This document shows positions 1,466 to 39,405 of a stretch of DNA of 64,000 nucleotides, one piece after another; within the stretch, counting starts at the first letter, position 1, and every line of letters starts with the position of its first letter. Source of the DNA: Escherichia coli (GTDB lineage Bacteria; Pseudomonadota; Gammaproteobacteria; Enterobacterales; Enterobacteriaceae). The stretch lies in assembly GCF_050920415.1 (NCBI RefSeq), contig NZ_CP169309.1; one strand, given 5' to 3'. The notes under the pieces are model-generated. The model was given only the letters and a program-made list of their open reading frames with translations, did no database searches and was not told where the DNA came from. The translations under genes were made by a program, and so were the position numbers.

Positions 1466-2667
1466 GCGATCTCCTTAGCTGTCTGCGGTGCCGCATGGCG
1501 GAAGAAGCGTTTTTCCCAGCCGATAATCAACATCAGCGCAGCAAACAGCAGCAAATATGTCACCAGCAGGCCACCCATCGGGCCAAAGGTTTTCAGGAGG
1601 TTGATTTTGTCCCAGTCGGTGGCCAGCGCCGGAGCGAAATCATCCCAGTAATACGCCAGAATCGTTGAGCCGATCACATTGCCCAGACCGACCCACCAGT
1701 AGTGCACCTGGCCTTCTACCGCGCGGTACATCCAGCCGGTTTCGCAGCCGCCTGCCAGCACGATGCCAAATCCAAACAGCAAACCACCAATTACCGCGTT
1801 TGGTCCTGCCCACATGATTTTGGGTTCAACGCCTAACTGTACGTAACTTAAGATCCCGATGGCACTTACCGCCATACCGATAATGATTGCTTTCGCCATG
1901 TGGGTACGTCCGGTGATCCACATATCGCGGAACGCCGAAGTAAAGCAGATTTGCGCACGTTCAATCAGTAAACCAAAGCCGACGCCAAACAGCATTGCCA
2001 GCCCCAGTTTTGGTTGGTTCATCGCCGTCAGCAGCGCCCAGCCCAGCATGCCGAAAAAGACCAGCATCCCGAGACGAAAACGACGCCGCGCCTGATCCGG
2101 TTTTTGCGTCAGCGGTGAGGCGGCAGAAACTTTCTGCATTTTCACGGGAATACGGAAGATGGGCAGCAGGGTAAAGCGCGCGCCAAACCATGAACCAATG
2201 GCAGTGGCGATGGCAAAGAACCAGGCATGCAGCGAGAACTGAGGAATGCCGGTAAAGAACGCCGCCAGGTTACAGCCCATTGCCAGACGCGCGCCAAAAC
2301 CGGCGATAATGCCGCCAATGATGGCCTGCATAATGCGGATACGGCTGCGCGGCATGCGCAGTTTGACATTGTTGGCCCACAGCGCTGCAGCAAAGCAGCC
2401 GCCAAACATACCGAGGATCATCATTCCGTCGATGCGGGTTAATGGCGATCCTTCCAGATGAATAATTTTAAAATAACCCCACTCTTCAGCATGGACGCCA
2501 AACAGCTGCAAAAGCTGACCGCCCCAACGGGTAAATTCACCCGTGACTGCCCAAAAGGTGCCAGTGATGCCAAAATAGTAAGTGGAGAGAATACCCGCCG
2601 CGATGACCGCGGGGATGGGCGCCCAGAATTTAATCAACCAGGCGTGTTTGAATTGCTGCCATGACAT
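1462..2667 (-). CDS. yedE: YedE/FdhT-family inner membrane (selenium/sulfur compound) transporter
   Basis: 401-aa polytopic hydrophobic ORF; K-12 synteny. Confidence 0.9.
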   Translation of the reverse strand: MSWQQFKHAWLIKFWAPIPAVIAAGILSTYYFGITGTFWAVTGEFTRWGGQLLQLFGVHAEEWGYFKIIHLEGSPLTRIDGMMILGMFGGCFAAALWANNVKLRMPRSRIRIMQAIIGGIIAGFGARLAMGCNLAAFFTGIPQFSLHAWFFAIATAIGSWFGARFTLLPIFRIPVKMQKVSAASPLTQKPDQARRRFRLGMLVFFGMLGWALLTAMNQPKLGLAMLFGVGFGLLIERAQICFTSAFRDMWITGRTHMAKAIIIGMAVSAIGILSYVQLGVEPKIMWAGPNAVIGGLLFGFGIVLAGGCETGWMYRAVEGQVHYWWVGLGNVIGSTILAYYWDDFAPALATDWDKINLLKTFGPMGGLLVTYLLLFAALMLIIGWEKRFFRHAAPQTAKEIA

Positions 2668-2853
2668 GAATGTAGCCTCTGAACTCAGAAGGTTTGAAAC
2701 AAGAGTCGCGAATCATACATCAAACAAATTTATTTTCGGGGTAATAATTCACAAAAATAATAGTTAGATCAAATTTCTCTCTGAACCTGGAAAGGCTGGC
2801 GACATCAGGGCTTTAATGCCACAATCCTCTTTTCTTCTCATGCAGGACGAATG

Positions 2854-3267
2854 ATGAAAAAACTCGCAATTGCAGGCGCGCTCATGTTGCTGGCGGGCTG
2901 TGCCGAAGTCGAAAACTATAACAATGTCGTTAAAACCCCCGCGCCGGACTGGCTGGCGGGCTACTGGCAGACCAAAGGGCCGCAAAGTGCGCTGGTCAGT
3001 CCGGAAGCGATAGGCAGCCTGATTGTCACTAAAGAGGGCGATACCCTCGATTGCCGTCAGTGGCAGCGGGTGATTGCTGTGCCGGGTAAGTTGACATTGA
3101 TGTCTGATGATCTCACTAACGTTACCGTAAAACGTGAGCTGTACGAGGTTGAGCGTGAAGGTAACACCATTGAGTACGATGGAATGACGATGGAGCGTGT
3201 GGATCGTCCGACGGCAGAGTGTGCCGCTGCGCTGGATAAAGCGCCGTTACCGACGCCATTGCCGTAA
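2854..3267 (+). CDS. yedD: lipoprotein YedD
   Basis: MKKLAIAGALMLLAGC lipobox; 137 aa counted from the second Met of ORF 2851-3267. Confidence 0.85.
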   Translation: MKKLAIAGALMLLAGCAEVENYNNVVKTPAPDWLAGYWQTKGPQSALVSPEAIGSLIVTKEGDTLDCRQWQRVIAVPGKLTLMSDDLTNVTVKRELYEVEREGNTIEYDGMTMERVDRPTAECAAALDKAPLPTPLP

Positions 3268-3300
3268 TGAAATCTCCCCGGCTTGCCGCCGGGGATGAAT

Positions 3301-4788
3301 TTAAATCACCTCTTCGATAACCCACACGCTGACGCTGCCGCCGTTGCAAAAGAAGGTCGCTTCGCCGTTTTCGTCGGTTACTACACTTTCTTGCCGGTTC
3401 CCCAGAAAATCACGCCAGGTTTTATTGCCGTAATTCTCTCCTAAATGAATGGTTTTTTCGCCATCATCTCCGTTCGACATGACCACCACGCAGCCGGGAT
3501 ATTCGTCGGTGCCACTGCGGCTAAAGGCAATGCAGTTCGGATGGTCGAAAAATAACGTCTGTACACCGTGGGCGAAACGCTGACGGGCGAGAATTAATTC
3601 ATCAAGTTGTTCGATTATTGGCATATCTATCGGATAGGTTTGCCCGTCACCACCGACATCTTCGTAATGTGCACCGTAGAGATCCGGATAGAACACCGAA
3701 GGAACGCCATTTTCCCGCAACAAAATTAGGGCGTACGCCAGCGGTTTAAACCACGGTTCGACCGGCGCTTCGAGGGCTTGCAACGGTTGGGTGTCGTGGT
3801 TGGCAACGAGGGTTACGGCGTGAAAAGGATCGGCTTCCACAAGCGTCCCAGTGAAAATCTGCGTCATGTCGTAGTCGCGTCCCATGCGCGATGCTTCATG
3901 GAATTTCATCTGCAGCGGCGCATCGAACAGCATGGTTTTGCCTTCCACCTGATCAATATACGTTTGCAGCTTATCAACTTCATGCGACCAGTATTCCGCC
4001 ACAATAAACAGCGGCTTTGGCGCAACTTCCTGTACGTGTTCGATCCACTCTTTATAAAACCACGCCGGAATATGTTTGACCGCATCAAGACGAAAACCGT
4101 CGCATTGCGTTTGTTCCATCACCCAGCGCGCCCAGTATTTAATCTCTTCCGTCACGGCATGATTGCGAAAATCGATATTCTCGCCCATCAGGTAATCGAA
4201 ATTACCGAGTTCATCATCAACCTGATCGTTCCAGCCTTCGCCGGTGTAGTCGTTAACAATTTTAAAAATGCCATCTTCATCAGGATTTTCGATATGGTCG
4301 ATACCGCTAAAACATTTGAAATCCCAGATAAACTGTGAGTATTGCCCGGCACGGGCGGGGAAGGTGTAACGCGTCCAGCCTTCGCATTCAATGATTTCTT
4401 CATCAATTTGCGTACGGTCGTCAGCATTAACGCGCTGCACGCGAATAGCTTCTTTTTCATCCGCGCCCATTTTGTGATTGACTACCACGTCCAGCAGCAC
4501 CGCAATGTCATTACGTTTCAGGGCGTCAATGGCGGCCAGCAGTTGTGCTTTATCGCCATATTTAGTAGGGATGCTGCCTTTCTGATCAAACTCGCCTAAA
4601 TCAAATAAATCATAGGAGTCGTAGCCGACCGAATACCCGCCCGATGCGCCTTTATAGGCGGGCGGCAACCAGACCATATTGATACCAATATCATTAAAAC
4701 CGTCGGCGCGCTCGGCCAGTTCAGGCCAGAGCTTACCGCCTTCCGGGTAATACCAGTGAAAACATTGTAACAGCGTGGGATTACGCAT
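3301..4788 (-). CDS. amyA: cytoplasmic alpha-amylase (GH13)
   Basis: 495-aa [24 protein letters not shown].., with the GH13 motifs DVVVNH and GFRLDAVKH. Confidence 0.92.
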
Positions 4789-10216: not shown

Positions 10217-12108
<1,892 letters not shown>

Positions 12109-14558: not shown

Positions 14559-14783
14559 TTACTGACGGTAGGCTTGTTTAATTTGCTTAACCGTTTTGGA
14601 AAATACAGCAGCCTGGGTTTCGTCTTCGATCAGCGCAAGCTGTTTTTCCATCTTTAACATCACGCGGCCCGCGTCAGCTTGTCCCATCGCCTGCAGCATC
14701 AGCGTCAGCATCGCTTTCAGGCAGGAGACTTCATTTGCCAGTTCTTGATTATTCTCGGCAGTAGAAAAATCAGGCGTACTCAT
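14559..14783 (-). CDS. yecF: small protein YecF (DUF2594)
   Basis: 74 aa; K-12 position between sdiA and uvrY. Confidence 0.85.
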
Positions 14784-15241
14784 TTATTTTCCTCGTCATG
14801 TTGCAATGAAAATTTGCGGTGAAAAATGTTAAGGCGGCGGAGTATACCATAAGCTTTGCTAAAAATAGCAGTGGTTGTTTTTTGAGCGTGCCGTCAACGG
14901 TGCTATTAAATGCGTTAATATAATGACCAATAAATATTTTTATCATGAATGTTTTTTGCCCGTATTGTTCGGGTTAATTAATGTTACATATTCAGCGGGC
15001 TGATTTTCATTTTTGCTGAATAAAGGTAATTTTTGTCACATTTCGTCGCAGGGCTTACTGTGAAACGATCCGGTAAGCCGTTGGTGACGGGCGTGACCAT
15101 AACTGTGGACAATCGAATTGACAAAAACGAGAGAAAAATCGAATACCCACCATTTTTAACGTTTCAAAGTTGCAATAAAAACCGCTAATATACGAATGAC
15201 TAACTATCAGTAGCGTTATCCCTATTTCTGGAGATATTCCT

Positions 15242-18483: not shown

Positions 18484-18559
<76 letters not shown>

Positions 18560-18612
18560 GTTTAAAAGACATCGGCTTCAGCGGATGTCCGGCTGAAAGG
18601 CCTGAAGAATTT

Positions 18613-18686
18613 GGCGCGTTAACAAAGCGGTTATGTAGCGGATTGCAAATCCGTCTAGTCCGGTTCGACTCCGGAACGCGCCTCCA
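18613..18686 (+). tRNA. cysT: tRNA-Cys(GCA)
   Basis: 74 nt, GGCGCGTTAACAAAGCGG..GCGCCTCCA; anticodon loop ATTGCAAAT. Confidence 0.95.
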
Positions 18687-18698
18687 CTTTCTTCCCGA

Positions 18699-18785
18699 GC
18701 CCGGATGGTGGAATCGGTAGACACAAGGGATTTAAAATCCCTCGGCGTTCGCGCTGTGCGGGTTCAAGTCCCGCTCCGGGTACCA
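18699..18785 (+). tRNA. leuZ: tRNA-Leu(UAA), intact copy at the prophage left junction
   Basis: 87 nt, GCCCGGATGGTGGAATCGGTAGACACAAGGGATTTAAAATCCC..GGGTACCA, with a long variable arm. Confidence 0.95.
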
Positions 18786-19103: not shown

Positions 19104-19325
19104 ATCCTGAGAAAAAGACAAATTCGTTAGATTTACTGTCTTTCTGCTGCCTCGAATGCTGATGTCTGCAGCACTGATAATAACTCTATCTCTTTGATAT
19201 AGATCTTTTTTTTGATGAATTGCACGGCATATTATCGTGATGGCACCTTCTTGTTAAAGGTGTTGTACTCCTCATCTCGATTTTATGATGTGGGCTATGA
19301 TTGGTTAGTAATAGAGTGTATCGGT

Positions 19326-19607
19326 ATGCGATGTGGTTTATTAATGGCAATCTGCCTTTGTTTGGTATCTTTTAGTGGGTATGCAGCAACAGGAAAGTCA
19401 GATGCTCAGATCAAGAAAGAAATAATTAAAGAGTCCATTGAATCTTATCCAGGCAATTGTGCGTGTCCGTATAATCATGCAAGGAATGGTAGTAGATGTG
19501 GTGGACGCAGTGCATATAGCCGTACTGGAGGGTATGACGTGGTATGTTATGAAAGTGATGTTACCGATGAAATGATCCGGCAATGGAAGCAGGAGAATGC
19601 TGAGTAA
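19326..19607 (+). CDS. small secreted Cys-rich protein (moron; unknown function)
   Basis: 93 aa from MRCGLLMAICLCLVSFSGYA (signal peptide). Mature part has CACPYNHARNGSRCGGRSAYSRTGGYDVVCYE. Low GC relative to the phage. Followed by terminator 19681-19712. Confidence 0.65.
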   Translation: MRCGLLMAICLCLVSFSGYAATGKSDAQIKKEIIKESIESYPGNCACPYNHARNGSRCGGRSAYSRTGGYDVVCYESDVTDEMIRQWKQENAE

Positions 19608-19712: not shown

Positions 19713-19938
19713 TATTCATGCCTATGAGATAGGGTGCCTTATCGGCCTTACCCTGGCAACCGATTGACGGGGAGTTGCCTCCCCGTCGCGGTTTCCTTAC
19801 TGCTTACACTGTAAGAACGCCGCAAACTCCGCTCCCCAGAAGCTCATCCGTATTTCACACAGCGAACCGTGCAGCATCCAGATGATGAGGATTACCGTCA
19901 CGCAGAACGTGATGGCCGTAAGCGATTTTTGCGACATA
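19696..19938 (-). CDS. Hok/Gef-family membrane toxin homolog with an unusual C-terminal extension (80 codons); not present in the supplied ORF track
   Basis: Hand translation gives MSQKSLTAITFCVTVILIIWMLHGSLCEIRMSFWGAEFAAFLQCKQ, then VRKPRRGGNSPSIGCQGKADKAPYLIGMNNNPAA*. The first 46 aa align with HokA (..WMIRDSLCELHIKQESYELAAFLACKLKE). An AAGGAG SD lies 6 nt upstream and an in-frame TAG 30 nt upstream. I checked that the frame contains no stops. Confidence 0.75.
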
Positions 19939-20126: not shown

Positions 20127-20387
20127 TTAATTCTGAGGTAAAGGCAAACTCATCTGATTGTTTCCCCTGTGTGAAGCTGGCAGCTCATGCCACGGGATAC
20201 CTTCTGAAGAGTGAACGCCGGAGGCGTGTTTTGATGTGAATTTATGGAAAGCTTCCAGTGTTGAGAAGCATACGCCGCATTCCAGATTGTTACACTGGTA
20301 ATACTTTTGCCGCACGGTGTTTGAATCATTTTCCGGACGACTGGTGCGGATACGGGCAGATGCGCCACAAAGCGGACAACGGAACAT
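20127..20387 (-). CDS. ogr: Ogr/Delta-type zinc-finger late transcription activator
   Basis: 86 aa, MFRCPLCGASARIRTSR..YYQCNNLECGVCF, with the same CxxC..CxxxxC layout as P2 Ogr (MFHCPLCQHAAHARTSRY..). Confidence 0.88.
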   Translation of the reverse strand: MFRCPLCGASARIRTSRPENDSNTVRQKYYQCNNLECGVCFSTLEAFHKFTSKHASGVHSSEGIPWHELPASHRGNNQMSLPLPQN

Positions 20388-20429: not shown

Positions 20430-21539
20430 TCACTCTGTTTCCGCTATCCATTCCGGGATTTTTGCTTCAAGCTCAAGCTGCGTGGTAAAGCCGCTGTTAT
20501 CAATGGTGTGCTCGGCTTTTGCAATAATCCAGTCCTGATTGTCGATGTCACTTTTGAAGCCTGTCACCGTGCCATGCATTTCGGGATAGAGTTCTGCACG
20601 TCCACGCGCCAGCGTGATGGAGAATGATGCGGCTCCGCGTTGTAGTTGCTGCCACTTTGCCGCCGCTGCGCGTCTTGCTGCCTGCTCGTTCTGATAAGTC
20701 TTGCGTAACACAAACACATTGCCTTCCGCGCCTTCCATATAATCACCTTCACGGCTGCTGCTTTTCTCCTTTTTGGGTTTTGGCGGTTTACGGCGTTTTA
20801 CGCTGACTTTTTTCTTTTTCCCGTAATTAAGATCAAGCCAGTAGGCGCGTACCCCCGTATACGCCTCGCGGTCAGCAATACGGAACTGATGGCGATCGCC
20901 GCTGCTGCGTGTAATGGCGAACGAGGGCAACGGCTGGCCCTGTGCGTTCACGCCACCACCTGGCATGATGAATAACAGATTGCCGCTTTTTACCGTGGTG
21001 ATTGCGCCCAGCATTTCCGCCATGCGCGTAAGGAAGGACATGTCGCTTTCTTCGGTCTGGTCGGCGTGGTCGATTTCAATATCCATCAGCATTTCGCTGA
21101 TTTGCGGTTTCAGGCCGTATCGGTGAGCAATTGCAGACACCACGCGTTCAACGGTCACATCATGCCAGGATACTTCGCGCTTGACGTTAAATTCATCCCG
21201 AAAATCTGCGCTTCTGGCTGAAATGGTCAGTCTGTCGGGCGGTCCTTCATGAGCAATTTCATCAACAATGTAAGTGCCTTTTTCTGTCAGCGGTTCTCCT
21301 TTCCAGCCAATGAGAACCGTCAGGCGCGCGCCCCGTGGCGGTAGCTGCAACTGACCATCTGCATCATCCAGCGTGATGGTGAGCTGGTCCGCCTCAAATC
21401 CCCGGTTGTCGGTCAGTGACAGGCTCATCAGGCGCTCTGCCACGCCTGACAGCGTTTTACCCTCCGCGAGAATATCAAAATCCGGCATTTTCACGGGGTC
21501 TGTGCCCTGACTGAGCAATTGCATGGTGGTGTCGGTCAT
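20430..21539 (-). CDS. P2 gpD-like tail protein
   Basis: 369 aa from MTDTTMQLLSQG (GGGAGG SD). Contains SLSLTDNRGFEADQLTITLDDADGQ, as in P2 gpD. The listed ORF has a spurious 44-codon N-terminal extension. Confidence 0.88.
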   Translation of the reverse strand: MTDTTMQLLSQGTDPVKMPDFDILAEGKTLSGVAERLMSLSLTDNRGFEADQLTITLDDADGQLQLPPRGARLTVLIGWKGEPLTEKGTYIVDEIAHEGPPDRLTISARSADFRDEFNVKREVSWHDVTVERVVSAIAHRYGLKPQISEMLMDIEIDHADQTEESDMSFLTRMAEMLGAITTVKSGNLLFIMPGGGVNAQGQPLPSFAITRSSGDRHQFRIADREAYTGVRAYWLDLNYGKKKKVSVKRRKPPKPKKEKSSSREGDYMEGAEGNVFVLRKTYQNEQAARRAAAAKWQQLQRGAASFSITLARGRAELYPEMHGTVTGFKSDIDNQDWIIAKAEHTIDNSGFTTQLELEAKIPEWIAETE

Positions 21540-21593
21540 CTGTTCCCTCCCTGTGCGGCATGGTCGCATGTGCGTGCGGAGGGGGTTACTGCT

Positions 21594-21621
21594 TTTTGTT
21601 GTCGCCGTGGCGGGAGAACGG
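21594..21621 (+). promoter_or_regulatory. candidate late-activator (Ogr-type) site in the D/FI divergent spacer
   Basis: TTTTGTTGT-N12-AGAACGG. The same TTTTGTTGT-N12-AGAACAG occurs at 39318-39345 in the O/P divergent spacer. Confidence 0.5.
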
Positions 21622-21696
21622 CGCAGGGGTGAGATTACGCGCGTGGTGGGTGATGATTGTTGCCGAATCATTTAACGGATACAAGGGGCTGAAGCT

Positions 21697-22881
21697 ATGA
21701 GTGAAACTCGTTTTCATGGTGCCCGTGTTACGGAAAATACCGACCTGGTAACAGCGATTAACGATGTTGATTCCAGCGTTATCGGTATCGTGGCAACGGC
21801 GGATGATGCGGACGCGGAGCTGTTCCCGCTGAACAAGCCCACATTGCTGACCCGCGTCAATGACGTGCTGGGAAAATGCGGAACAACGGGGACGCTTTAT
21901 CGTGCGCTTAAGGCCATCGCAGACCAGGTGAGCACAAAGGTGATCGTCGTTCGCGTGGCTGAACACAAAGAAGAAGACGGAAAAACGCAGGATCAACTGG
22001 TTATCGGTGGTTCTGAATCTGACGGCAGCTATACGGGGATGTATGCGCTGCTTGTTGCAGAGCAGGATGAAAGCATCGGATACCGTCCGCGTATTCTGGC
22101 CGCGCCGGAGCTGGACACGGAGGCGGTGACAAAATCCTTGTGCGTGATTGCGGGTAAACTGCGCGCGTTTGTGTATGCCACATGTCATGGTTGTAACACG
22201 ATGGCTGAGGCGATTACCTACCGCCAGAAATTCAACGAACGTGAGGTGATGCTCTTATGGCCTGACTTCATCGCCTACAACCCGAAAAGTGGCAAAAACG
22301 AAACGTTCCCCGCGCCTGCTTATGCGTGCGGCCTTCGTGCGTACATTGACCATGAGCAGGGCTGGCACAAATCGCTGTCCAACGTTCCGGTTAAAAATGT
22401 GCTGGGAATGTCCAGGCATGTGTTCTGGTCGTTGCAGGCCGAAGACAGTGATGCCAACAGCCTCAACAACAAAGAAATCACGACCATTATTCGTCGCAAC
22501 GGGTTCCGCTTCTGGGGCAACCGCACACCGGAAACGAACGCCTACATCTTTGAGGTGTATACCCGAACCGCACAGGTACTGGCTGATTCAATTGCGGAAG
22601 CGCAGTTTGAAACCATCGACAGTCCACTGACGCCTGCGAACGTGAAGGATGTTATCAGTGCCATCAGGGCAAAACTGGATTCACTGGTTACTGCCGGGAA
22701 ACTGATTGGCGCGTCGTGCTGGTATGACGTGGTGGATAACAGCACCACGGATTTACGTCAGGGGCGTGTGCGTATTCGCTACAAATATACGCCTGTTCCT
22801 CCGCTGGAAGATATGGAGCTTTACCAGACGTTTACTGATGAATACTTTGATCCCGCATTTGCGGTGTTGGGAGGTGTCTGA
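21697..22881 (+). CDS. P2 gpFI-like contractile tail sheath
   Basis: 394 aa with ..GWHKSLSNVPV..RRNGFRFWGNRT..YTRTAQVLADS.., similar to P2 FI. Confidence 0.9.
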   Translation: MSETRFHGARVTENTDLVTAINDVDSSVIGIVATADDADAELFPLNKPTLLTRVNDVLGKCGTTGTLYRALKAIADQVSTKVIVVRVAEHKEEDGKTQDQLVIGGSESDGSYTGMYALLVAEQDESIGYRPRILAAPELDTEAVTKSLCVIAGKLRAFVYATCHGCNTMAEAITYRQKFNEREVMLLWPDFIAYNPKSGKNETFPAPAYACGLRAYIDHEQGWHKSLSNVPVKNVLGMSRHVFWSLQAEDSDANSLNNKEITTIIRRNGFRFWGNRTPETNAYIFEVYTRTAQVLADSIAEAQFETIDSPLTPANVKDVISAIRAKLDSLVTAGKLIGASCWYDVVDNSTTDLRQGRVRIRYKYTPVPPLEDMELYQTFTDEYFDPAFAVLGGV

Positions 22882-23393
22882 TGGCTGTACCAAAACATCT
22901 TCGCTTTTTTACGCTGTTTGTGAATGGTGAAAACGAAGTGGGTAAGGTGACGTCCGTCACTCCACCTAAACTGACGCGCAAAACTGAAAGCTATCGTGGC
23001 GGTGGCATGATGGGGGCGGTGAGTATCGACCTCGGTCTTGATGATTCTGCGCTTGATGCGAGTTTTGTCATGGGGGGCGCAGTTCGTGAGCTGTTCCTTA
23101 AATATGGCGGCACGATTGACAGCACGTTGCTGCGTTTTGCGGGTGAATACTACACCGATGCAGAAAGTGATCTGTATGAAATCGAGATGCGCGGGCGTGT
23201 GACGGAAATTGATATGGGGGAAGCCAAACAGGGCGAAGCCACATCACACACTTACGCTGTCAAAAACACCTACTACAAGCTGAGCGTTAACGATCGTCCG
23301 CTGTGGGAAATCGACCTGCTGAACCACATCTACCGGAAGGACGGCAAGGACATCGTGCCTGATCGCATCCGTTCCGCGCTTGGGCTTGGCTGA
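22881..23393 (+). CDS. P2 gpFII-like tail tube
   Basis: 170 aa, immediately after the sheath gene (ATGA-type overlap). Confidence 0.88.
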   Translation: MAVPKHLRFFTLFVNGENEVGKVTSVTPPKLTRKTESYRGGGMMGAVSIDLGLDDSALDASFVMGGAVRELFLKYGGTIDSTLLRFAGEYYTDAESDLYEIEMRGRVTEIDMGEAKQGEATSHTYAVKNTYYKLSVNDRPLWEIDLLNHIYRKDGKDIVPDRIRSALGLG

Positions 23394-23449
23394 TAAGTAA
23401 TATGCAGGCGGCGCAGTGCGTCGCCTCTGACTGAAAAAGGAGACAACTG

Positions 23450-23824
23450 ATGCAAAACATCAATACTGAAACCCGGAATAACGCCGTGGCGGATGATGTG
23501 ACGGCAGGTGAGGATATGGCTGTCGAACGTGGCGTAAAACTGGCCCGACCAATTGAGCGCGGTGGCGAAAAAATCACGTATGTGGAAATTACCGGGGCTA
23601 TTGAGCAGGCTGGATCTCTGCGTGGTCTGTCGCTGTCTGATGTGCTGAATCTGAAAGCGGATACCATGTTCACGCTGTTGCCTCGCGTGACCTCGCCACG
23701 ACTGGATGAAGTGATGATTAAAAAAATGTCGTCACGCGATTTTATTCAGTTGTGCGCTGTGGCTGTAAATTTTATGAGCGAGCCAGACTCTGGCGCGAAG
23801 AGCGTGCAGGAGACGGCAGCGTAA
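23450..23824 (+). CDS. P2 gpE-like tail assembly chaperone (zero-frame product)
   Basis: 124-aa ORF; the true start may be the internal MAVERGVKL. Sits in the P2 position between the tube and tape-measure genes. Confidence 0.8.
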   Translation: MQNINTETRNNAVADDVTAGEDMAVERGVKLARPIERGGEKITYVEITGAIEQAGSLRGLSLSDVLNLKADTMFTLLPRVTSPRLDEVMIKKMSSRDFIQLCAVAVNFMSEPDSGAKSVQETAA

Positions 23825-23988
23825 TCACCCTGGTGTGCTTTGAGCACATCGAAGATCTGGTGGCGGATATTGCCGCCATTTTTAACTGGTCGCCCGCCGA
23901 AATCTTCATGATGACGCCCGGCGAAGTGGTTAGCTGGCGTGAGCGGGCGGCACTTCGCAGCGGGAATGCAGACAATGAAGACTCTTGA
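23450..23988 (+). CDS. gpE+E' tail chaperone made by a programmed -1 frameshift at A_AAT_TTT (23767-23773)
   Basis: The -1 frame is open from 23722 to the stop at 23986-88. Its tail ..LVADIAAIFNWSPAEIFMMTPGEVVSWRERAALRSGN resembles the P2 E' tail. The heptamer is in X_XXY_YYZ phase in the E frame. Confidence 0.7.
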
Positions 23989-26776
23989 TATCCGGGTCGC
24001 TTTCAGCGCCGTTGACAGACTGACCCGGCCTGCCGAAAACGCCCGCCGCCTGATGGGGCAGTTTGGTGACTCCATCCAGCGAACGCAGGGGGCGATCAAA
24101 AATCTCGAGCGTCAGGCGCGTTCATTTGAGCGCGCCCGTGACGCTGTCAGTAAAGCGGATGCGAGCATCGTGAAAGCACGACGCCAGCTTAACGCCCTTA
24201 ATCAGTTACAACGCACGGGTACAGTGCTCAGCGAAAAACAACAAAAGCTGATGCAGCAGTTAAGCACCCGGCTTGAACGCCTGAATGAATCGCGCACACG
24301 GGAAATTCAGAAAATGCGGGAGCTTGGCGGAGAGCTGAAACGCCACGGCATTTCCCTGACAGGCAGCGATAACACCATCCAGCAGGCCATCAGACGCACC
24401 GAACAGTACAACAACCAGCTTGAACGCGAACGGCAGACGCTTGCGCGTGTAACGCGGGCGCGTGAGCGGTATTCGCGCGCGCAGGAAACTGCTGGAAAAC
24501 TGAAAACAGGTGGTGCGCTGGCAATTGGTGCGGCAGCGGCTGGCGGCTATGCTGCCGGGCGTTTTTTGCAGCCTGCGATCGGGTTCGGGAAAGAGATGTC
24601 CCGCGTTCAGGCACTGACGCGAATCGACCAGAACAGCCCACAGTTTAAGGCGCTGCGTGAGCAGGCGTTAAAACTTGGCTCTGAAACGCAGTTCACCGCA
24701 GGCGATGCCGCCAGTGGACAGGCATTTCTTGCAATGGCTGGCTTCACACCGCAGGCCATTCAGGCTGCGCTTCCGGGCGTGCTGAGCATGGCAACGGCTG
24801 GCGGCATGGATCTCGGCGAGACGGCGGATATTGGCTCAAATATCCTGACGCAGTTCGGCCTTTCTGCTGACCAGATGGACCGGGTTGGTGACACACTCAC
24901 CGCAGCGTTTACCCGTACCAACACTGACCTTCGCGCACTGGGCGAAACCATGAAATATGCAGGTCCGGTGGCGGGTAAGCTGGGAATATCGCTGGAGCAG
25001 GCCGCAGCGATGGCGGGCGTGCTGGCGAATATGGGTATCAGAGGGAGTGATGCCGGGACGGCAATGCGTGCCAGCCTGGCTCGTCTGGCATCACCGCCAA
25101 AGGCAGCAGCAGAGGCGCTGAAAGAGCTTGGTGTGGCAGTTTCTGACGCGAACGGCAAAATGCGCCCGATGGAGGATGTGCTGGCCGACCTTTATAAAGC
25201 CACCCGCAAATACGGGGAAGTTGACCGGGTATCCTTCTTTAAGGACATCGCCGGGGAAGAGGCTTTCACATCATTTATGGCCCTCGTTGATGCAGCGGGT
25301 GACGGGTCCTTACCCAAACTGAGAAAAGAACTTGAAGGCGCGCGCGGTGAGGCTGAACGCACAGCAAAGGTTATGGCCAACAACCTTGACGGCGATCTGA
25401 AATCACTCGGCAGTGCATGGGAAGGGTTGCGCATCCGCATTGCAGATCTGATTGACGGTCCGCTGCGTTCTGTCACGCAGTGGCTCACGCGTGTGGTATC
25501 AAAGGTGACGGCGCTGGCGCAGGCCCATCCCGCACTGACGCGCCAGCTACTGATAGCAGGCGGTGCGTTGCTGGCAATGACTGCAACGGTTGGCTCGTTG
25601 TCGCTGGCTATTGGTGTGCTTGCTGGTCCGCTGGCAAAACTGCGTCTTGGTTTTTCCCTCCTGACCGGATCAATGAATGCTGTCAGGGTCCTGCCAGCAC
25701 TATGGGGAATGGTGACGGGTTCCGTTTCTTTGCTGGGAGGTGCTATCGGGGCGCTGTTCAGTCCGGTTGGTCTTATCGTGGCTGCGCTTGCCGGAGCTGC
25801 CATTCTTATCTGGAAATATTGGGATCCCATCAGGGCATTTTTTGCCGGGGTGTTCGGCGGGATTATGGAAAGGCTGACCCCGTTGCGCGAAACCTTTGAA
25901 CGGTTTGGCCCTGTTTTTGACGTAATCGGAAGCGGGATCAGCCAGGTGTTTAACTGGTTTAAATCGCTGCTGTCACCGATGGAGTCCAGCAAGGAAACGC
26001 TGGATAAATGTACCAGTGCTGGCGAGATATTCGGTAACGTTCTTGGCGGTGCGTTACAACTTGTTCTGACACCTGCAAAAATGTTGCTGGATACGCTGGC
26101 GTGGATACTTGAAAAGCTCGGTGTGCTTCCGGATGAAGCGGAAAGGGCGCGCAAGAAAATCGAAGACGCACAGCGTGCGGCCATTCTTCAGGACAAGGTT
26201 GCCTTGCTTCAGGGGGACCTGGCGAAAATCAATCCGCCGAAGCCTGTGGAAAATGGCACCGGAGGTGATAAACCCAAAGACAACAAACCGCTCACAGACA
26301 GCAATACCGGTACGCTACGCAGACTCAGCAAGATTGCTGATAACACAGGTAAGCTGGTTGATGAGACGAAAAAACGCATTGGCCCTGGCGATATTGTCTT
26401 TAAGAACCTGCCCCGCGCACTTGCTGTTCGTGGGGAGTGGCAGGAGCGGAAGATTGCGCAGGTCAGTAAGCCTGCTTCCGCAATCAACATCACACCTGTG
26501 GTCCCGACTCCTCTGCCTCCGGCGCTGGTCCCTGTTGTTGCGGCCAGCTCCCGCCCGGTGGCGGAGGCCATACGATCGCCAGTGGCATCAGTTCCTGCAA
26601 CTTCCCGTAACCGGGAGCCTGTTGTCTCCGGATTTGGCGGTGAAATTCATGTTCATCTGCATAACGTTGTTACGCAGAATCCCCGCGAACTGGCGAAACT
26701 GGTCGGTGAAATGGTCAGGGCAGAATTGGAACGACGCGACCGTGCCGGACGTGGCAGTTTTTACGATAAAGATTGA
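23975..26776 (+). CDS. tail tape measure protein (gpT-like)
   Basis: About 933 aa from MKTLDIRVAFSAVDRL; coiled-coil N-terminal part and Gly/Ala-rich hydrophobic centre. Confidence 0.88.
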   Translation: MKTLDIRVAFSAVDRLTRPAENARRLMGQFGDSIQRTQGAIKNLERQARSFERARDAVSKADASIVKARRQLNALNQLQRTGTVLSEKQQKLMQQLSTRLERLNESRTREIQKMRELGGELKRHGISLTGSDNTIQQAIRRTEQYNNQLERERQTLARVTRARERYSRAQETAGKLKTGGALAIGAAAAGGYAAGRFLQPAIGFGKEMSRVQALTRIDQNSPQFKALREQALKLGSETQFTAGDAASGQAFLAMAGFTPQAIQAALPGVLSMATAGGMDLGETADIGSNILTQFGLSADQMDRVGDTLTAAFTRTNTDLRALGETMKYAGPVAGKLGISLEQAAAMAGVLANMGIRGSDAGTAMRASLARLASPPKAAAEALKELGVAVSDANGKMRPMEDVLADLYKATRKYGEVDRVSFFKDIAGEEAFTSFMALVDAAGDGSLPKLRKELEGARGEAERTAKVMANNLDGDLKSLGSAWEGLRIRIADLIDGPLRSVTQWLTRVVSKVTALAQAHPALTRQLLIAGGALLAMTATVGSLSLAIGVLAGPLAKLRLGFSLLTGSMNAVRVLPALWGMVTGSVSLLGGAIGALFSPVGLIVAALAGAAILIWKYWDPIRAFFAGVFGGIMERLTPLRETFERFGPVFDVIGSGISQVFNWFKSLLSPMESSKETLDKCTSAGEIFGNVLGGALQLVLTPAKMLLDTLAWILEKLGVLPDEAERARKKIEDAQRAAILQDKVALLQGDLAKINPPKPVENGTGGDKPKDNKPLTDSNTGTLRRLSKIADNTGKLVDETKKRIGPGDIVFKNLPRALAVRGEWQERKIAQVSKPASAINITPVVPTPLPPALVPVVAASSRPVAEAIRSPVASVPATSRNREPVVSGFGGEIHVHLHNVVTQNPRELAKLVGEMVRAELERRDRAGRGSFYDKD

Positions 26777-26782
26777 GGAGTC

Positions 26783-27277
26783 ATGGCCATGATGATGATC
26801 TACGGCATGTTTGTTTTTGAGCTGCGCACATTGCCGCATCAGCAGTTACAGCAAAACAAAAGCTGGCGGCATGTGAAAAATGAACGCGTTAACCGTTCAG
26901 CAAGCTGGCAGTATATCGGGGCAGGCGATGATCGCATCGTTCTTTCTGGTGTGCTTTATCCTGAAATTACAGGTGGCGAAGTATCGCTTTCGTTGCTGAC
27001 CACGCAGGCATATACAGGACGCCCCTGGCCTCTGATTGATGGTGTCGGGCAGATTTACGGCATGTATGTCCTGACCGGAACGAATACGACCCGCTCCGAG
27101 TTTGATCGCTACGGTAAGGCGAAAAAGATAGAATTTTCACTGACCCTTGAACGCTGTGATGAGGATTTGCGGGAGCGCCTGCAATCCTCATCGTTCAGCG
27201 ATATGCTGTCCGGCTTCAAAGATAAGGTCACATCATCCCTTAACAGCGCGGCCAGCTCCGTTAAAGGGCTGTTTTGA
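26783..27277 (+). CDS. P2 gpU-like tail protein
   Basis: 164 aa, (MA)MMMIYGMFVFELRTLPHQQLQQNKSWRH.., resembling the P2 gpU N-terminus. Confidence 0.88.
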   Translation: MAMMMIYGMFVFELRTLPHQQLQQNKSWRHVKNERVNRSASWQYIGAGDDRIVLSGVLYPEITGGEVSLSLLTTQAYTGRPWPLIDGVGQIYGMYVLTGTNTTRSEFDRYGKAKKIEFSLTLERCDEDLRERLQSSSFSDMLSGFKDKVTSSLNSAASSVKGLF

Positions 27278-27284
27278 TTAACGC

Positions 27285-27314
27285 AAAACCGCTAATGGTC
27301 AGATTAGCGGTTTT
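27285..27314. terminator. bidirectional hairpin between convergent gpU and invertase genes
   Basis: Perfect 12-bp stem AAAACCGCTAAT-GGTCAG-ATTAGCGGTTTT. It contains the invertase stop codon. Confidence 0.7.
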
Positions 27315-27903
27315 CATTTTCCTGAGTCTGCCTGGTTGTTTCTTCAGCCTGTATATCGCCTACAGGGTGATAACGATAAATCGTCGATATGCCGATGTCG
27401 TAAATGATCGCCAGTTGTTTCCTGTCATGACCGTTTTTAATCAGCCTCGCTATTTGCTCGTGTTGTTCTTTTGTCAACTTCGGGCGACGTCCGCCAATGC
27501 GCCCCCGTGCGCGCGCTGCCGCCAGCCCGGCCAGTGTACGCTCTACAATTAATTCACGTTCCATTTCGGCTAAAGCCCCCATGACGTGAAAAAAGAAACG
27601 CCCCATGGGTGTTGATGTGTCAATGCTGTCCGTCAGACTACGGAAATTAACACCTTTTTCCCGCAATTCCTCAATAAGCGTGATCAGGTGTTTCATACTT
27701 CTGCCCAGTCTGTCCAGCTTCCAGACAACCAGCGTATCTCCTTCTGATAGCGTTCTGATCAGTTTTTTCAATCCCGGTCTGGCTGATTTCGTTCCGCTGA
27801 TTTTATCTTCAAAAATCAGTTCACATCCTGCGCACTCCAGCGCGTTACGCTGCAATTCTGTATTCTGGTCATTTGTTGATACGCGGACATAGCCAATAAG
27901 CAT
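27304..27903 (-). CDS. Gin/Pin/Cin/Hin-family serine DNA invertase
   Basis: 199 aa, MLIGYVRVSTNDQNTELQRNAL.. (catalytic Ser in the YVRVST motif), with a C-terminal HTH. Confidence 0.93.
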   Translation of the reverse strand: MLIGYVRVSTNDQNTELQRNALECAGCELIFEDKISGTKSARPGLKKLIRTLSEGDTLVVWKLDRLGRSMKHLITLIEELREKGVNFRSLTDSIDTSTPMGRFFFHVMGALAEMERELIVERTLAGLAAARARGRIGGRRPKLTKEQHEQIARLIKNGHDRKQLAIIYDIGISTIYRYHPVGDIQAEETTRQTQENENR

Positions 27904-27958
27904 GATGGATCCCCTGAATAAAAACCGGGGATGATGCCAGTTAGCCGTAATCTCTGCA

Positions 27959-27984
27959 TTTTCTTAAACGTTGGTTTGGGAGAA
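27959..27984 (+). promoter_or_regulatory. gix-like crossover site (invertase-proximal)
   Basis: TTTTCTTAAACG-TT-GGTTTGGGAGAA. Both half-sites fit TTxTCxxAAACC. Confidence 0.8.
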
Positions 27985-28440
27985 GGTGCTCCAGCTATTG
28001 GCGTTCCGTTCTTCTGGCCGTCCGCCGCAATGCCAGATACCGTAATCGAAAGCTGGTCCGGCATGGTGTTTTTGAAGTTCAACGGCGCGAAATTCTCTGC
28101 CACTGATTACCCTGTGCTGGCGAAAGTGTTTCCTTCGCTGGTATTACCTGAAGCCCGCGGTGATTTCATTCGTATCTGGGATGATGGCCGTGGTGTTGAT
28201 AGTGGCCGTGCGTTACTTTCCGCGCAATCAGACGATTTCAAAACGCACGAGCATAAAATTTTAGGGCTAAATGGAAGTGGCAGTAATGTAGTGTTTGGCA
28301 CCGTTTCGAATGCTTCTCCATTATATACCAGCGGCGTTAGTCAGCCGGGTGGAAGTGCTTTGCCCGCTTTTCAAAACCCAGGCGGTACTGAAACGCGTCC
28401 CCGTAACATCGCATTCAACTTTTTAGTAAGGGCTAAATAA
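27959..28440 (+). other. silent alternative tail-fibre C-terminal cassette (Sv'-like; no start of its own in this orientation)
   Basis: The frame reads ..FLNVGLGEGAPAIGVPFFWPS.. to a stop at 28440, with a tail-collar-like sequence. It would fuse to the constant part of H at GLGE after inversion. Confidence 0.75.
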
Positions 28441-29033
28441 TGAAACCTGTTTTTGATGAAAATGGACTGGCTACAGTGCCGGGTGATATGCGTTGTTTTT
28501 ATTATGATGCAGTAACGTATGAATATACGGGCTGGTCTGATGAATATATTAATACTGGTATAAGTATGCCCGCCTGTTCCACTGGTATTGACCCTGGCGA
28601 AAACATTCCGGGAAAAGTGGCTGTATTTACAGGTAAGGGATGGAGCCATGAAGAGGACCATCGCAATGAGACTGTTTACTCAATCGAAAATGGCGCAGCT
28701 GTTACAGTGGATTATATCGGTGCCATCAAAAACGGTTATGTCACGCTTTCACCGTTAACGCCATATGATAAATGGGATGGTGAGAAATGGGTGACAGATA
28801 CTGAGGCACAACACGGTGCCGCAGTAGAAGCGGCAGAAGCACAGCGTCAGCCACTGATTGATGCTGCAATGGCTTCCATCAGTCTGATTCAGCTGAAATT
28901 ACAGGCCGGGCGGAAGCTGACGCAGGCAGAAACCACCCGGCTTAACGCCGTGCTTGATTACATTGACGCGGTGACGGCAACAGATACGAGCACCGCTCCG
29001 GATGTCATCTGGCCTGAACTGCCGGAGGCGTAG
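28440..29033 (+). CDS. tail fibre assembly protein (alternative cassette, Tfa/U'-like)
   Basis: 197 aa with the conserved Tfa C-terminus ..RLNAVLDYIDAVTATDTSTAPDVIWPELP. Confidence 0.8.
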   Translation: MKPVFDENGLATVPGDMRCFYYDAVTYEYTGWSDEYINTGISMPACSTGIDPGENIPGKVAVFTGKGWSHEEDHRNETVYSIENGAAVTVDYIGAIKNGYVTLSPLTPYDKWDGEKWVTDTEAQHGAAVEAAEAQRQPLIDAAMASISLIQLKLQAGRKLTQAETTRLNAVLDYIDAVTATDTSTAPDVIWPELPEA

Positions 29034-29439
29034 GCCATTCAATATCTGGAGCACTGGAGGTATCAACCAGTTCCAGTGCGTCCAGATAATCCAGCCACAA
29101 ATTATATTGCGCCAGTTCCTCACCTTTCAGACGACCAATAGCCGCTTTACCAGGCCATTGCTTGGTATTCATATATTCGTTGGACTGATTAATCAATTGC
29201 TGTTTTTTCAATTCGGCTGCGGCAATCTGTTCCTCATGTGTTGGTGGTGGAATTTCAGACCATGCAGGAAAACCATTTTCCTCAGCGATACGGATTTTTC
29301 CTTTCGGCGGTAATCCGGAAAACTCAATATACACCTGCTCATCAACTTCAACAGCATCATCTGGCCATGAATTTACATTGATGTAGTCATCCTTAAGCGC
29401 AGGATTCACAAAAATATTTAAAGATGGACTAAAAAACAC
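29005..29439 (-). CDS. tail fibre assembly protein (currently expressed cassette; P2 gpG analog)
   Basis: 144 aa with ..NLWLDYLDALELVDTSSAPDIEWPTPP. Its 3' end overlaps the opposing tfa gene by 29 bp. Confidence 0.82.
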   Translation of the reverse strand: MFFSPSLNIFVNPALKDDYINVNSWPDDAVEVDEQVYIEFSGLPPKGKIRIAEENGFPAWSEIPPPTHEEQIAAAELKKQQLINQSNEYMNTKQWPGKAAIGRLKGEELAQYNLWLDYLDALELVDTSSAPDIEWPTPPAVQAR

Positions 29440-29440
29440 A

Positions 29441-30922
29441 TCACCCTCCTATAGCAACATAACAGCCCGATACAGGATTTGCGGCAGTCGCTACGCTGGA
29501 AAAACCACGAAAGCCGCTTTTTGTGATTGCGGAGGCAGATAGTATTCCGGCACCCGAAGGTGTATGCCCCACGTGGCTGGCAACCATCACGTAGCACGCC
29601 GACGGAAAAGCGAAAGGGAAATTGTTTAAATATCCCGCATCATCCCCCAGACTTCCCCCAAACTGCCCCACTCCCCACTGGATAATAAGTGGTCTCCGAA
29701 CGCCAGAAATAATTAATGGAATTGCTACATACCCATTCACCAACATAGCGCCGGTTGTTGCGCCAGCCAGAGCCAATTCCCCCAAACCAAGGTAATCAAG
29801 AACTCCCTGAGTGCTGGTTTTACCAAGAATGGCACGTCCAACACTTGTCAACGCGGTTAACGCGGCACGATCTGCCCCTGTAAAATATGGGAGTTTATCT
29901 GCTGATGTAGCAAGCTCCGCCAGCGCCGTCAGGGTGGCATCCTTCGGTTGCTTACCCGCAAGCGCGTTAGTCATGGTGGTCGCAAAATTCGGGTCATTGC
30001 CCAGCGCCGCAGCCAGTTCGTTCAGCGTGTTCAGTGCATCAGGTGACGAATCTACAAGTGCGGCAATCGCGGCCATAACGAAAGCCGTGCTTGCGATCTG
30101 GGTACTATTAGTCCCCTGTGGCGCTGTTGGTGTTGTTGGCGTTCCGGTCAGTGCCGGGCTGTTTAATGGTGCTTTCTTGCTCGTTTCATCCATTACCGCC
30201 TTAACAGCTTTTGGTGTCGCTGCCAGCGTTTCAGACGTGCTGTTCGTGGCGCTACTGAGCTGAACAATCCCTTTTTGTGTAGTGGTGGCGTTCTGGGCGG
30301 TATATTTCCCGTTAGCCAGGTCATATGCAGCCTTAACCGCTTTCGGTGTTGCGGCCAGTGTTTCTGATTCACTGTTAATTGCACTGCTTAACTGAGTAAA
30401 ACCTTTTACGGTCAGCGAGGCGTCCGGGTGACGTCGTGACTGTTCGTGCTCTGATATTTTATCATCCACATATTTGCGGGTTGCCAGAACCACAGACGGG
30501 TCGATTTTCAGCGTGATGGCTTCGGTGTTCGTGACAACCAGAATCATGCGGATAGTCTGGGTGCGTCCACTGCCTTCCTGCAACTGCGGTTTGTACGTTT
30601 CCGGGCAGTTTGCCACCGCAATGAGTACACCTTCATCATCATAAAGCCCAATCTCACGGATCCAGAATCCTCCCTCGTTTTCAGGGATGATTTGCTCCGC
30701 AATAATCTGGCTCTGATTGTTAGGGTCAACACTCAGAAGATTCAGCGGTGCAATGCGTTTCTGGTTAATCAGTTTTGTTTGTGCAGGGTCTGGTGTTGGT
30801 AACACACCATTTGCATCACCAACGGCCATTTGCGTCAGATTCAGCTTACTGCCGAGCATCGTCGCGTTAGCCAGTCGTGCCGCGCCCTGATTAGTCAGAA
30901 TGGCGTAGTATTTCACTGTCAT
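29441..30922 (-). CDS. tail fibre protein (P2 gpH / Mu S-like); the C-terminal ~112 aa are encoded inside the invertible segment
   Basis: 493 aa with the N-terminus MTVKYYAILTNQGAARLANA.. and repeated SETLAATPKAVKA motifs. Confidence 0.88.
   Translation of the reverse strand: MTVKYYAILTNQGAARLANATMLGSKLNLTQMAVGDANGVLPTPDPAQTKLINQKRIAPLNLLSVDPNNQSQIIAEQIIPENEGGFWIREIGLYDDEGVLIAVANCPETYKPQLQEGSGRTQTIRMILVVTNTEAITLKIDPSVVLATRKYVDDKISEHEQSRRHPDASLTVKGFTQLSSAINSESETLAATPKAVKAAYDLANGKYTAQNATTTQKGIVQLSSATNSTSETLAATPKAVKAVMDETSKKAPLNSPALTGTPTTPTAPQGTNSTQIASTAFVMAAIAALVDSSPDALNTLNELAAALGNDPNFATTMTNALAGKQPKDATLTALAELATSADKLPYFTGADRAALTALTSVGRAILGKTSTQGVLDYLGLGELALAGATTGAMLVNGYVAIPLIISGVRRPLIIQWGVGQFGGSLGDDAGYLNNFPFAFPSACYVMVASHVGHTPSGAGILSASAITKSGFRGFSSVATAANPVSGCYVAIGG
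29777..29802 (-). promoter_or_regulatory. gix-like crossover site inside the tail fibre gene
   Basis: The minus strand reads TTCTTGATTACC-TT-GGTTTGGGGGAA. It is inverted relative to 27959-27984, with the same TT core and a near-identical right half. Confidence 0.8.
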
Positions 30923-34717: not shown

Positions 34718-34985
34718 CTTTTGCAATATCGTTGCGTAGCTGTTCACGTCTTACCTCTCCGTCCTGATTGCGTTGCTGATTTTCCACGCGGAGTTGCGCC
34801 AGCACCTGCTGCATATCCTGTACCCCGGCGCTGATGATATTCAGGGTGTCGGCGGTACTTTTCAGGGTGCTGGCCTGCGCTTCGTTTCTGGCGTTCTCCC
34901 GGCCCAGCGACCACGACAGACGCATGGATGTTCCCCATCCGGCAATCAGAAGGAAAGCGACGCCAAGCGTGGGCCAGAGCTTCAT
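34578..34985 (-). CDS. i-spanin (LysB/Rz analog)
   Basis: 135 aa from MKLWPTLGVAFLLIAGWG (N-terminal TM helix) followed by coiled coil. The ATGA overlaps the endolysin stop. Confidence 0.7.
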   Translation of the reverse strand: MKLWPTLGVAFLLIAGWGTSMRLSWSLGRENARNEAQASTLKSTADTLNIISAGVQDMQQVLAQLRVENQQRNQDGEVRREQLRNDIAKDECAHALPDARFTDRLRRHAERATASAVSPAYTADADHSGNAAPLP

Positions 34986-39251: not shown

Positions 39252-39317
39252 AGTTTTTGCCCCTCTGACTGGTTCTTCAGTCATGATGGCAAAGCGTAAC
39301 AGGCTGATACAAAGGGC

Positions 39318-39345
39318 TTTTGTTGTAAGAAAACGGCCAGAACAG
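39318..39345 (+). promoter_or_regulatory. candidate late-activator site in the O/P divergent spacer
   Basis: TTTTGTTGT-N12-AGAACAG, near the middle of the 154-bp spacer. Paralogous to 21594-21621. Confidence 0.5.
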
Positions 39346-39405
39346 GGGGTTAAGGAGAACGGTTTCGCGCGCGGGTAATCTTCCTGTAATTACTCAGGGG
39401 GAGCA

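Follow-up and report, generated by a model that had tools for sequence, protein, structure and literature searches.

In phage P2, the late genes H-G-FI-FII-E-T-U-D follow one another on a single strand, and the F operon (pF-FI-FII-E-E'-T-U-D-ogr) contains an E/E' frameshift pair, a U stop codon that overlaps the start of D, and a D gene without a promoter of its own. An Ogr-type activator site lies 82-83 nucleotides (nt) upstream of FI; the P2 late-promoter consensus is TGT-N12-ACA, as cited in PMC3931495, and the P2 sites share a TGTTGT half. The divergent promoters pO and pP have one activator site between them in the P2 GenBank record, with transcription start sites (TSSs) 55-56 nt to either side, and their -10 hexamers, as read from the P2 sequence, lie 43-49 nt from the site centre. 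Smp131 has one 18-nt site shared by its promoters PP' and PO', and the late operon of this other Peduoviridae phage has been rearranged, in that V and W have moved (PMC3931495). SEN4 and SEN5 have been called a distinct subcluster of the P2-like phages (PMC5261728). Here we examine a P2-like prophage within a 64,000-nt stretch of Escherichia coli DNA (contig NZ_CP169309.1 of assembly GCF_050920415.1; hereafter the window), in which the genes from FI to U stand on the strand opposite to that of their flanking genes.

We consider the inversion of the FI-U block to be, very probably, an inherited trait of the P88/SEN4 branch of P2-like phages, a reading that, taken jointly with a single ancestral inversion and a bidirectional promoter, best explains the locus. 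In the window, H, tfa, a DNA invertase gene, D and ogr are on the minus strand, and FI-FII-E/E'-T-U occupy the plus strand between 21697 and 27277; this strand map had been drawn in an earlier reading of the letters alone (the original prediction), and open reading frames (ORFs), Pfam matches and direct reading bear it out. P2 has the same block collinear with H-G and D, whereas here FI to U run opposite to H, tfa and D, so that the canonical one-strand order is lost. The Peduoviridae late tail gene set is present in the window, with FI, FII, E/E', T, U and D as well as V, W, J, I and H recognised by Pfam and by blastp against P2 proteins (33-74% identity).

The flipped order, D(-) / FI..U(+), is annotated in five genera of the International Committee on Taxonomy of Viruses (ICTV): Xuanwuvirus (exemplar P88), Novemvirus (phiT5282H), Senquatrovirus (SEN4), Reginaelenavirus (3LV2017) and Reipivirus (ST16-OXA48phi5.4). 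As these five genera share it, the collinear H..D order is typical of P2 and is not required for Peduoviridae. The feature tables of P88 and Shae_phiSM give D(-) / FI..U(+) / invertase(-), exactly as in the window, and the Xuanwuvirus phages as a whole (P88, P884B11, Shae_phiSM, 500465-2, 520873, PhiR44_2 and Chuche) have hok, (ogr), D(-) / FI FII E E' T U(+) / invertase(-), an invertible fibre segment and H I J W V(-), differing from the window only in alleles and in the tail-fibre cassettes they carry. SEN4/5, phiT5282H, 3LV2017 and ST16-OXA48phi5.4 share the flip of D / FI..U, U and the fibre genes again being convergent (gpD 63-76% and FI 56-75% identical to the window proteins, the FI extremes being SEN4 at 56% and phiT5282H at 75%), but they belong to separate genera and carry other cargo, or none, at the U junction. 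The canonical collinear order is found in P2, a Klebsiella Gegevirus, Burkholderia phiE12-2 and Mannheimia phage vB_MhM_587AP1. In the last of these, which serves as a canonical outgroup below, T is annotated upstream of the baseplate operon (1-972, 10248-11104) and not between E and U, a further case of a rearranged late operon in the Peduoviridae.

A survey of bacterial genomes gave the same division. One genome per bacterial species was scanned with a gpD alignment, the 80 loci most similar to the query were kept, and each was classified by tblastn with window and P2 proteins. All 60 loci with a gpD at least 60% identical to that of the window were flipped, and all 20 with a gpD of at most 53% identity were canonical. 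In the flipped loci, D is on the strand opposite to FI and U, and H, I and J are on the D strand; their hosts span about 25 genera, including Salmonella, Edwardsiella, Serratia, Erwinia, Pantoea, Enterobacter, Kosakonia, Klebsiella, Raoultella, Pectobacterium, Brenneria, Symbiopectobacterium, Xenorhabdus, Photorhabdus, Providencia, Morganella, Hafnia, Yersinia and others. We make no claim that the xenorhabdicin (xnp1) or kosakonicin loci are of the flipped type; the xnp1 variable region beside the sheath gene (PMC13280938) fits two canonical loci of the survey (L070 and L071). Among 5426 complete E. coli genomes, the flipped D/FI junction was present in 1379 and contiguous in 1307, and a synthetic canonical U-D junction built from window sequences (the D start abutting the U end on the same strand) was matched in 0 of the 1413 E. 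coli genomes that carry these sequences.

These counts bear on the possibility that an assembler misoriented the block. Nothing beyond the departure from P2 order speaks for such an error, and with the same arrangement recurring in the 1307 E. coli genomes, in 60 loci from about 25 genera and in five classified phage genera, we give it a negligible probability. Phages with the flipped order are also viable: P88 can be induced and is lytic, plaques are formed by PhiSM, and SEN4/5 are produced (PMC5285337, PMC6456863, PMC5261728). The view of the original prediction that the arrangement is fixed and functional is upheld. Its presentation of the order as a notable peculiarity of this prophage is not: it had itself named, as a possible outcome of a synteny comparison that would count against it, a subgroup of P2-like phages in which the divergent D/FI order is routine, and such a subgroup was found, which makes the order a lineage trait that is routine in the five ICTV genera, in every close relative surveyed and in E. 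coli at large. The order is aberrant only by the yardstick of P2 or 186; it is standard for a prophage lineage carried by roughly one in four complete E. coli genomes and by many Enterobacterales, and reading it as a rearrangement, as a misassembly or as the work of an invertase would be a mistake.

We placed the flipped loci in neighbour-joining trees of D and of FI, both rooted on the Mannheimia phage. The flipped set was monophyletic in each, in 30 of 30 bootstraps, on stems of 0.22 (FI) and 0.17 (D). With canonical outgroups, the flipped state must be the derived one, and a single origin is its simplest history. One inversion of a pF-FI..U cassette explains the order, as the original prediction had in essence proposed. 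The flip is also a clean shared derived character and can be used to sort Peduoviridae genera. In the history we propose, the cassette made up of the pF promoter and FI, FII, E, E', T and U would have inverted once in the ancestor of a large enterobacterial branch of the Peduoviridae, with one breakpoint between the tail-fibre genes and pF and the other at the U/D boundary; every descendant would have retained the flipped order, and the FI-U block would not be mobile.

A tail-core module from another myovirus could instead have replaced the block at the origin of the clade and been inserted the opposite way. Phage genomes are mosaic, and H, I and J differ from the rest in identity to P2 (74%, 61% and 54%, the only proteins that are closer), which points to recombination nearby. 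The other late proteins of the window, however, are evenly 35-50% identical to their P2 counterparts (D 49%, FI 46%, FII 44%, U 46%, V 47%, N 42%, P 44%, Q 47%; 33-50% for the genes of the F operon), and the distance of FI, FII, U and T from P2 matches that of D, V, N, P and Q, at 44-49% for most. With the late proteins so evenly distant from P2, the FI-U block does not look foreign beside its neighbours. The FI and D trees recover the same flipped clade, with the stems given above, and no donor lineage is visible among the nearest non-flipped FI proteins, which are all about 47-49% identical. From the activator site to the FI ATG the distance is 80-88 nt in the flipped clade and 79-92 nt in canonical phages, a range that takes in the P2 distance; with the distance equal to that of canonical phages, pF therefore moved with the block. 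The even distance from P2 and the joint travel of pF fit an in-place inversion better than a foreign module, which these sequence comparisons make improbable.

An active phase switch would be a further way to read the block, with FI-U as an invertible segment under the adjacent invertase that couples D to the F operon in one orientation and uncouples it in the other. The invertase gene does abut the block, and enzymes of this kind can act on distant sites. Yet there are no inverted repeats beyond 9 nt at the ends of the block (best match E 0.12), and no gix-like core lies within 3 mismatches at either end, as the original prediction had said when it called involvement of the invertase unsupported. 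The crossover core TTGGTTTGGGRGAA occurs in the window only at 27971 and 29777, on either side of the fibre segment, and the opposite orientation of the block was absent from all 1413 E. coli genomes mentioned above, against 1307 with the flipped junction. The invertase adjoins U in only 7 of the 60 flipped loci (and in 2 of the 20 canonical ones), so that 53 flipped loci have none there, and it is likewise missing from the U junction of SEN4, phiT5282H, 3LV2017 and ST16-OXA48phi5.4. We regard a phase switch of the FI-U block as very improbable.

The invertase has a far better candidate substrate at hand. The tail-fibre segment at 27971-29790 is bounded by inverted crossover sites (27971-27984 and 29777-29790) and adjoins the serine invertase gene (27304-27903, minus strand; Pfam Resolvase and HTH_7). 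It forms part of a cassette resembling the Mu G segment (27931-30922), in which an alternative H C-terminus (27931-28440, plus strand) and a tfa gene (28440-29033, plus strand) face the tail-fibre assembly gene tfa (29005-29439, minus strand) and the expressed H (29441-30922, minus strand, followed by I, J, W and V); both tfa ORFs match Caudo_TAP. An adjoining serine invertase, inverted crossover sites, two alternative H C-termini and two tfa genes are the features of the Gin/Cin/Pin/Hin segments (Mu G, P1 C, e14 P), whereas the FI-U block has no feature of a Gin/Hin-type segment. Judged by its sequence features, it is this fibre segment, and not the FI-U block, that is the substrate of the invertase. 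Where U and the fibre genes converge, the cargo varies: it is the invertase in the window (27278-27930), DUF262 and a hypothetical gene in ST16-OXA48phi5.4 (778-2681), and nothing in SEN4 (14583-14785). This junction resembles a counterpart of the P2 Z/fun moron site.

The inversion leaves D and FI divergent across a 157-bp spacer (21540-21696), for which the original prediction had reported a 28-bp motif shared with the O/P divergent spacer. Both copies are present and appear to be a real regulatory element, but the motif is bipartite, (C)TTTTGTTGT-N12-AGAAC, and its N12 core is unconserved, with about 16 of 27 positions identical. When both strands of the 64 kb were searched, exact TGTTGT-N12-AGAAC was found twice, at 21597-21619 and 39321-39343, in each case within a divergent late-gene spacer; by our own arithmetic, about 0.03 chance matches are expected for 11 fixed bases. 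The copy at 21597-21619 (plus strand) contains an inner TGT-N12-AGA dyad at 21600-21617, centred at 21608/21609. Relatives have TGTTGT-N12-ACAAC, a clear dyad containing the P2 consensus, and the right half-site is thus AGAAC in the window against ACA or ACAAC in the P2 type. On this likeness and placement, we read the shared motif as an Ogr-type activator site; an Ogr/Delta-type zinc-finger activator together with late-promoter sites resembling TGT-N12-ACA about 55 nt upstream of the start, here predicted from sequence, is a Peduoviridae trait.

Two other candidates were set aside in this search. The strict P2 consensus gave 9 matches in the window, where 15 are expected, and none in the late spacers, the right half-site there being AGA(AC). 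A third copy of the motif with 2 mismatches (34893-34915, minus strand) lies inside the coding sequence of a lysis gene, has no -10 at the expected distance and was taken as a chance match. We found no separate pV-type promoter between S and V, which overlap.

The D/FI spacers of the flipped clade are 145-161 bp long, and each has one central TGT-N12-A(C/G)A dyad, 67-78 nt from the D ATG and 80-88 nt from the FI ATG. We anchored 53 non-redundant spacers of this clade on the dyad centre, with 14 canonical spacers as a control. On the FI side, an xAxxAT hexamer stands at 44-49 nt (A45 in 51/53, A48 in 52/53 and T49 in 51/53 of the flipped spacers, and 14/14 in the canonical ones). The D side has its mirror image (A45 in 50/53, A48 in 40/53 and T49 in 47/53), preceded by G42 in 46/53 and by an extended TG in 35. 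Both sides carry a -10-like xAxxAT in 52 of the 53 flipped spacers, whereas only 2 of the 14 canonical spacers have one on the far side of pF. In the window, the predicted pF -10 is GATGAT (21652-21657, plus strand), 44-49 nt from the dyad centre, with a predicted TSS near 21664; the predicted pD has an extended -10, TGcGACCAT (21560-21568, minus strand), at the mirror distance of 44-49 nt, with a predicted TSS near 21553 and a leader of about 14 nt.

The O/P divergent spacer (39252-39405; activator site 39321-39343) has almost the same layout. The longest ORF of the scaffold gene O starts at 39284, but the ATG at 39251, read by eye, has a GAGGGG Shine-Dalgarno sequence and is favoured by comparison with P2 gpO; with this start the spacer measures 154 bp, and its layout and length nearly equal those of the D/FI spacer. 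From the same geometry, we predict a pP -10, TAATCT, at 39376-39381 (plus strand) and an extended pO -10, TGcCATCAT, at 39283-39291 (minus strand). Like P2 pP/pO, both are divergent spacers of about 150-170 bp around a single dyad, which is flanked on either side by -10 elements at about 43-49 nt. P2 has this shared-site design only at P/O, whereas the lineage of the window, if the predicted starts hold, seems to use it twice. A combined scan for the dyad and xAxxAT recovered pF alone and was dropped, being too strict for pP (TAATCT) and pD, and a generic sigma-70 scan of the D/FI spacer gave no match, which is no surprise if the promoters need an activator and have poor -35 regions.

The inversion would have stranded D and ogr without pF while placing the Ogr-dependent pF next to D. 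We think it rather probable that the pF activator site was then co-opted to drive a newly evolved pD, so that FI-U and D-ogr would share one Ogr site in a duplicate of the pP/pO design. The dyad would serve back-to-back late promoters, pF firing rightward through FI to U and ending at the hairpin at 27285-27314, and pD leftward through D and ogr. Late read-through into ogr, which comes from pF in P2, would come from pD, and the positive feedback on ogr would be rerouted. As far as we could find, a bidirectional pF/pD promoter has no earlier description. The locus may offer a natural example of an operon that was split by an inversion and then rescued through bidirectional use of an existing activator site.

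D and ogr might also be independent of the shared site, which would then serve pF only, and be transcribed from an activator-independent sigma-70 promoter, or from ogr's own promoter in combination with another route to D. On the D side, many relatives combine an extended TG -10 with a fair -35-like TTGnnn at 21-26 nt, which could function with no activator. The 42-bp gap between D and ogr contains a TAGAAT hexamer, and P2 has its own ogr promoter. An independent promoter would not, however, be expected to keep its -10 at the exact mirror distance (44-49 nt) from the dyad in 52 of 53 spacers, nor to reproduce the geometry of the experimentally mapped P2 pP/pO pair, and gpD, a structural late protein, should be produced together with the rest of the tail. 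We hold this alternative to be unlikely, though a good deal less so than the others weighed here, and continue to prefer a pD that shares the Ogr site with pF.

Several points weigh against the account as a whole. A single inversion is the parsimonious history, inferred and not proven, and the neighbour-joining trees behind it were built from distances and are crude. The survey was made up of the 80 loci closest to the query, so that independent flips, or revertants to the canonical order, may exist in more distant Peduoviridae. Conservation and geometry are the grounds on which pD, its start site and its Ogr dependence are predicted, and many relatives have a stronger D-side hexamer and -35 region than the window, where the hexamer is GACCAT. 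In the papers searched, namely those on P88, PhiSM, SEN4/5 and P2-like diversity and the matches in the Xuanwuvirus literature, no passage describing the inversion was found; the arrangement is already known through deposited annotations and ICTV-classified genomes, and not through a published description.

The genes on either side of the D/FI spacer are as follows. D (20430-21539, minus strand) encodes a baseplate hub protein of 369 amino acids that matches Pfam Phage_GPD and, as noted, shares about half its residues with P2 gpD. Its start is the ATG at 21539, which is preceded by a GGAGGGA Shine-Dalgarno sequence; we preferred it to a 413-amino-acid ORF extending to 21671, an artefact of mechanical ORF listing. 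The ogr-type late activator gene (20127-20387, minus strand) lies 42 bp downstream of D and encodes 86 amino acids with a CX2CX24CX4C motif (Pfam Ogr_Delta, 5.1e-14), 41.5% identical to P2 Ogr. D is the lead gene of a leftward D-ogr unit, which runs toward a hok-like gene (19797-19937, minus strand; HOK_GEF, 3.7e-7), as the original prediction had described. This hok/gef-family toxin gene is one of two cargo genes between the prophage end and ogr; the other, a 131-amino-acid ORF at 19212-19607 (plus strand), has a low guanine-cytosine content, a signal-peptide-like N-terminus and no Pfam family match.

On the rightward side, the tail sheath gene FI (21697-22881; Pfam sheath domains) is followed by the tail tube gene FII (22881-23393; Phage_tube, 7.8e-46) and by the tail assembly chaperone gene E (23450-23824; Phage_TAC_7), with E' in the -1 frame and ending at 23988 (Phage_P2_GpE, 2.9e-12). 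A slippery A_AAT_TTT at 23767-23773, spotted by eye, is a plausible candidate for the E/E' frameshift site. The tape measure gene T spans 23939-26776 (PhageMin_Tail, 1.3e-58) and, again by eye, probably starts at the ATG at 23975. The tail protein gene U (26783-27277; Phage_P2_GpU, 1.5e-38) is the last of the unit; all these genes are on the plus strand. U and the invertase gene converge, as had been predicted, on a perfect hairpin at 27285-27314 with a 12-bp stem and a 6-nt loop (-15.7 kcal/mol, z = -2.4), which overlaps the invertase stop codon and has T-runs on both strands. From these features, it is likely a bidirectional terminator for U and the invertase gene.

The prophage occupies about 19.0-53.6 kb of the window, directly downstream of a tRNA Gly(gcc)-Cys(gca)-Leu(taa) cluster (18484-18785) that itself follows uvrC-pgsA; its integrase gene is at the far end (52563-53564), with tyrP and araG beyond. 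The host flank on the tRNA side reads amyA, fliD, fliC, dcyD, tcyN, uvrC, pgsA and tRNA Gly-Cys-Leu, and that on the other side tyrP and araG. A search of 18.5-54.5 kb at the Rfam gathering thresholds returned the three host tRNAs and nothing else.

Genera are delimited by the ICTV at about 70% nucleotide identity across the genome. Over 77% of the 11-kb query, the region from D to H shows 93-95% nucleotide identity to Escherichia phage P88, P884B11, Citrobacter phage Shae_phiSM and several other E. coli phages, the unmatched 23% or so being mostly the fibre region, and gpD is 96-99% identical to that of Xuanwuvirus phages (99% for P884B11). The window also has the order hok-ogr-D / FI..U / invertase-fibre switch-H..V seen in the feature tables of P88 and Shae_phiSM. 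By these comparisons, the element is in all likelihood an ordinary P88-like Xuanwuvirus prophage beside tRNA-Leu in an E. coli-type chromosome.

Two database records related to this prophage deserve mention. The GenBank labels of Citrobacter phage Shae_phiSM (OR565851.1) are shifted at 2294-4745, where D is called 'ogr/Delta-like zinc finger family protein' and FI is called 'late control gene D protein'. The contig NZ_JBQPOM010000071.1, assigned to 'Vagococcus sp. WN89Y' and hence to a Gram-positive genus, encodes prophage proteins 95-98% identical to those of the window prophage and is probably from a contaminated or mislabelled assembly.

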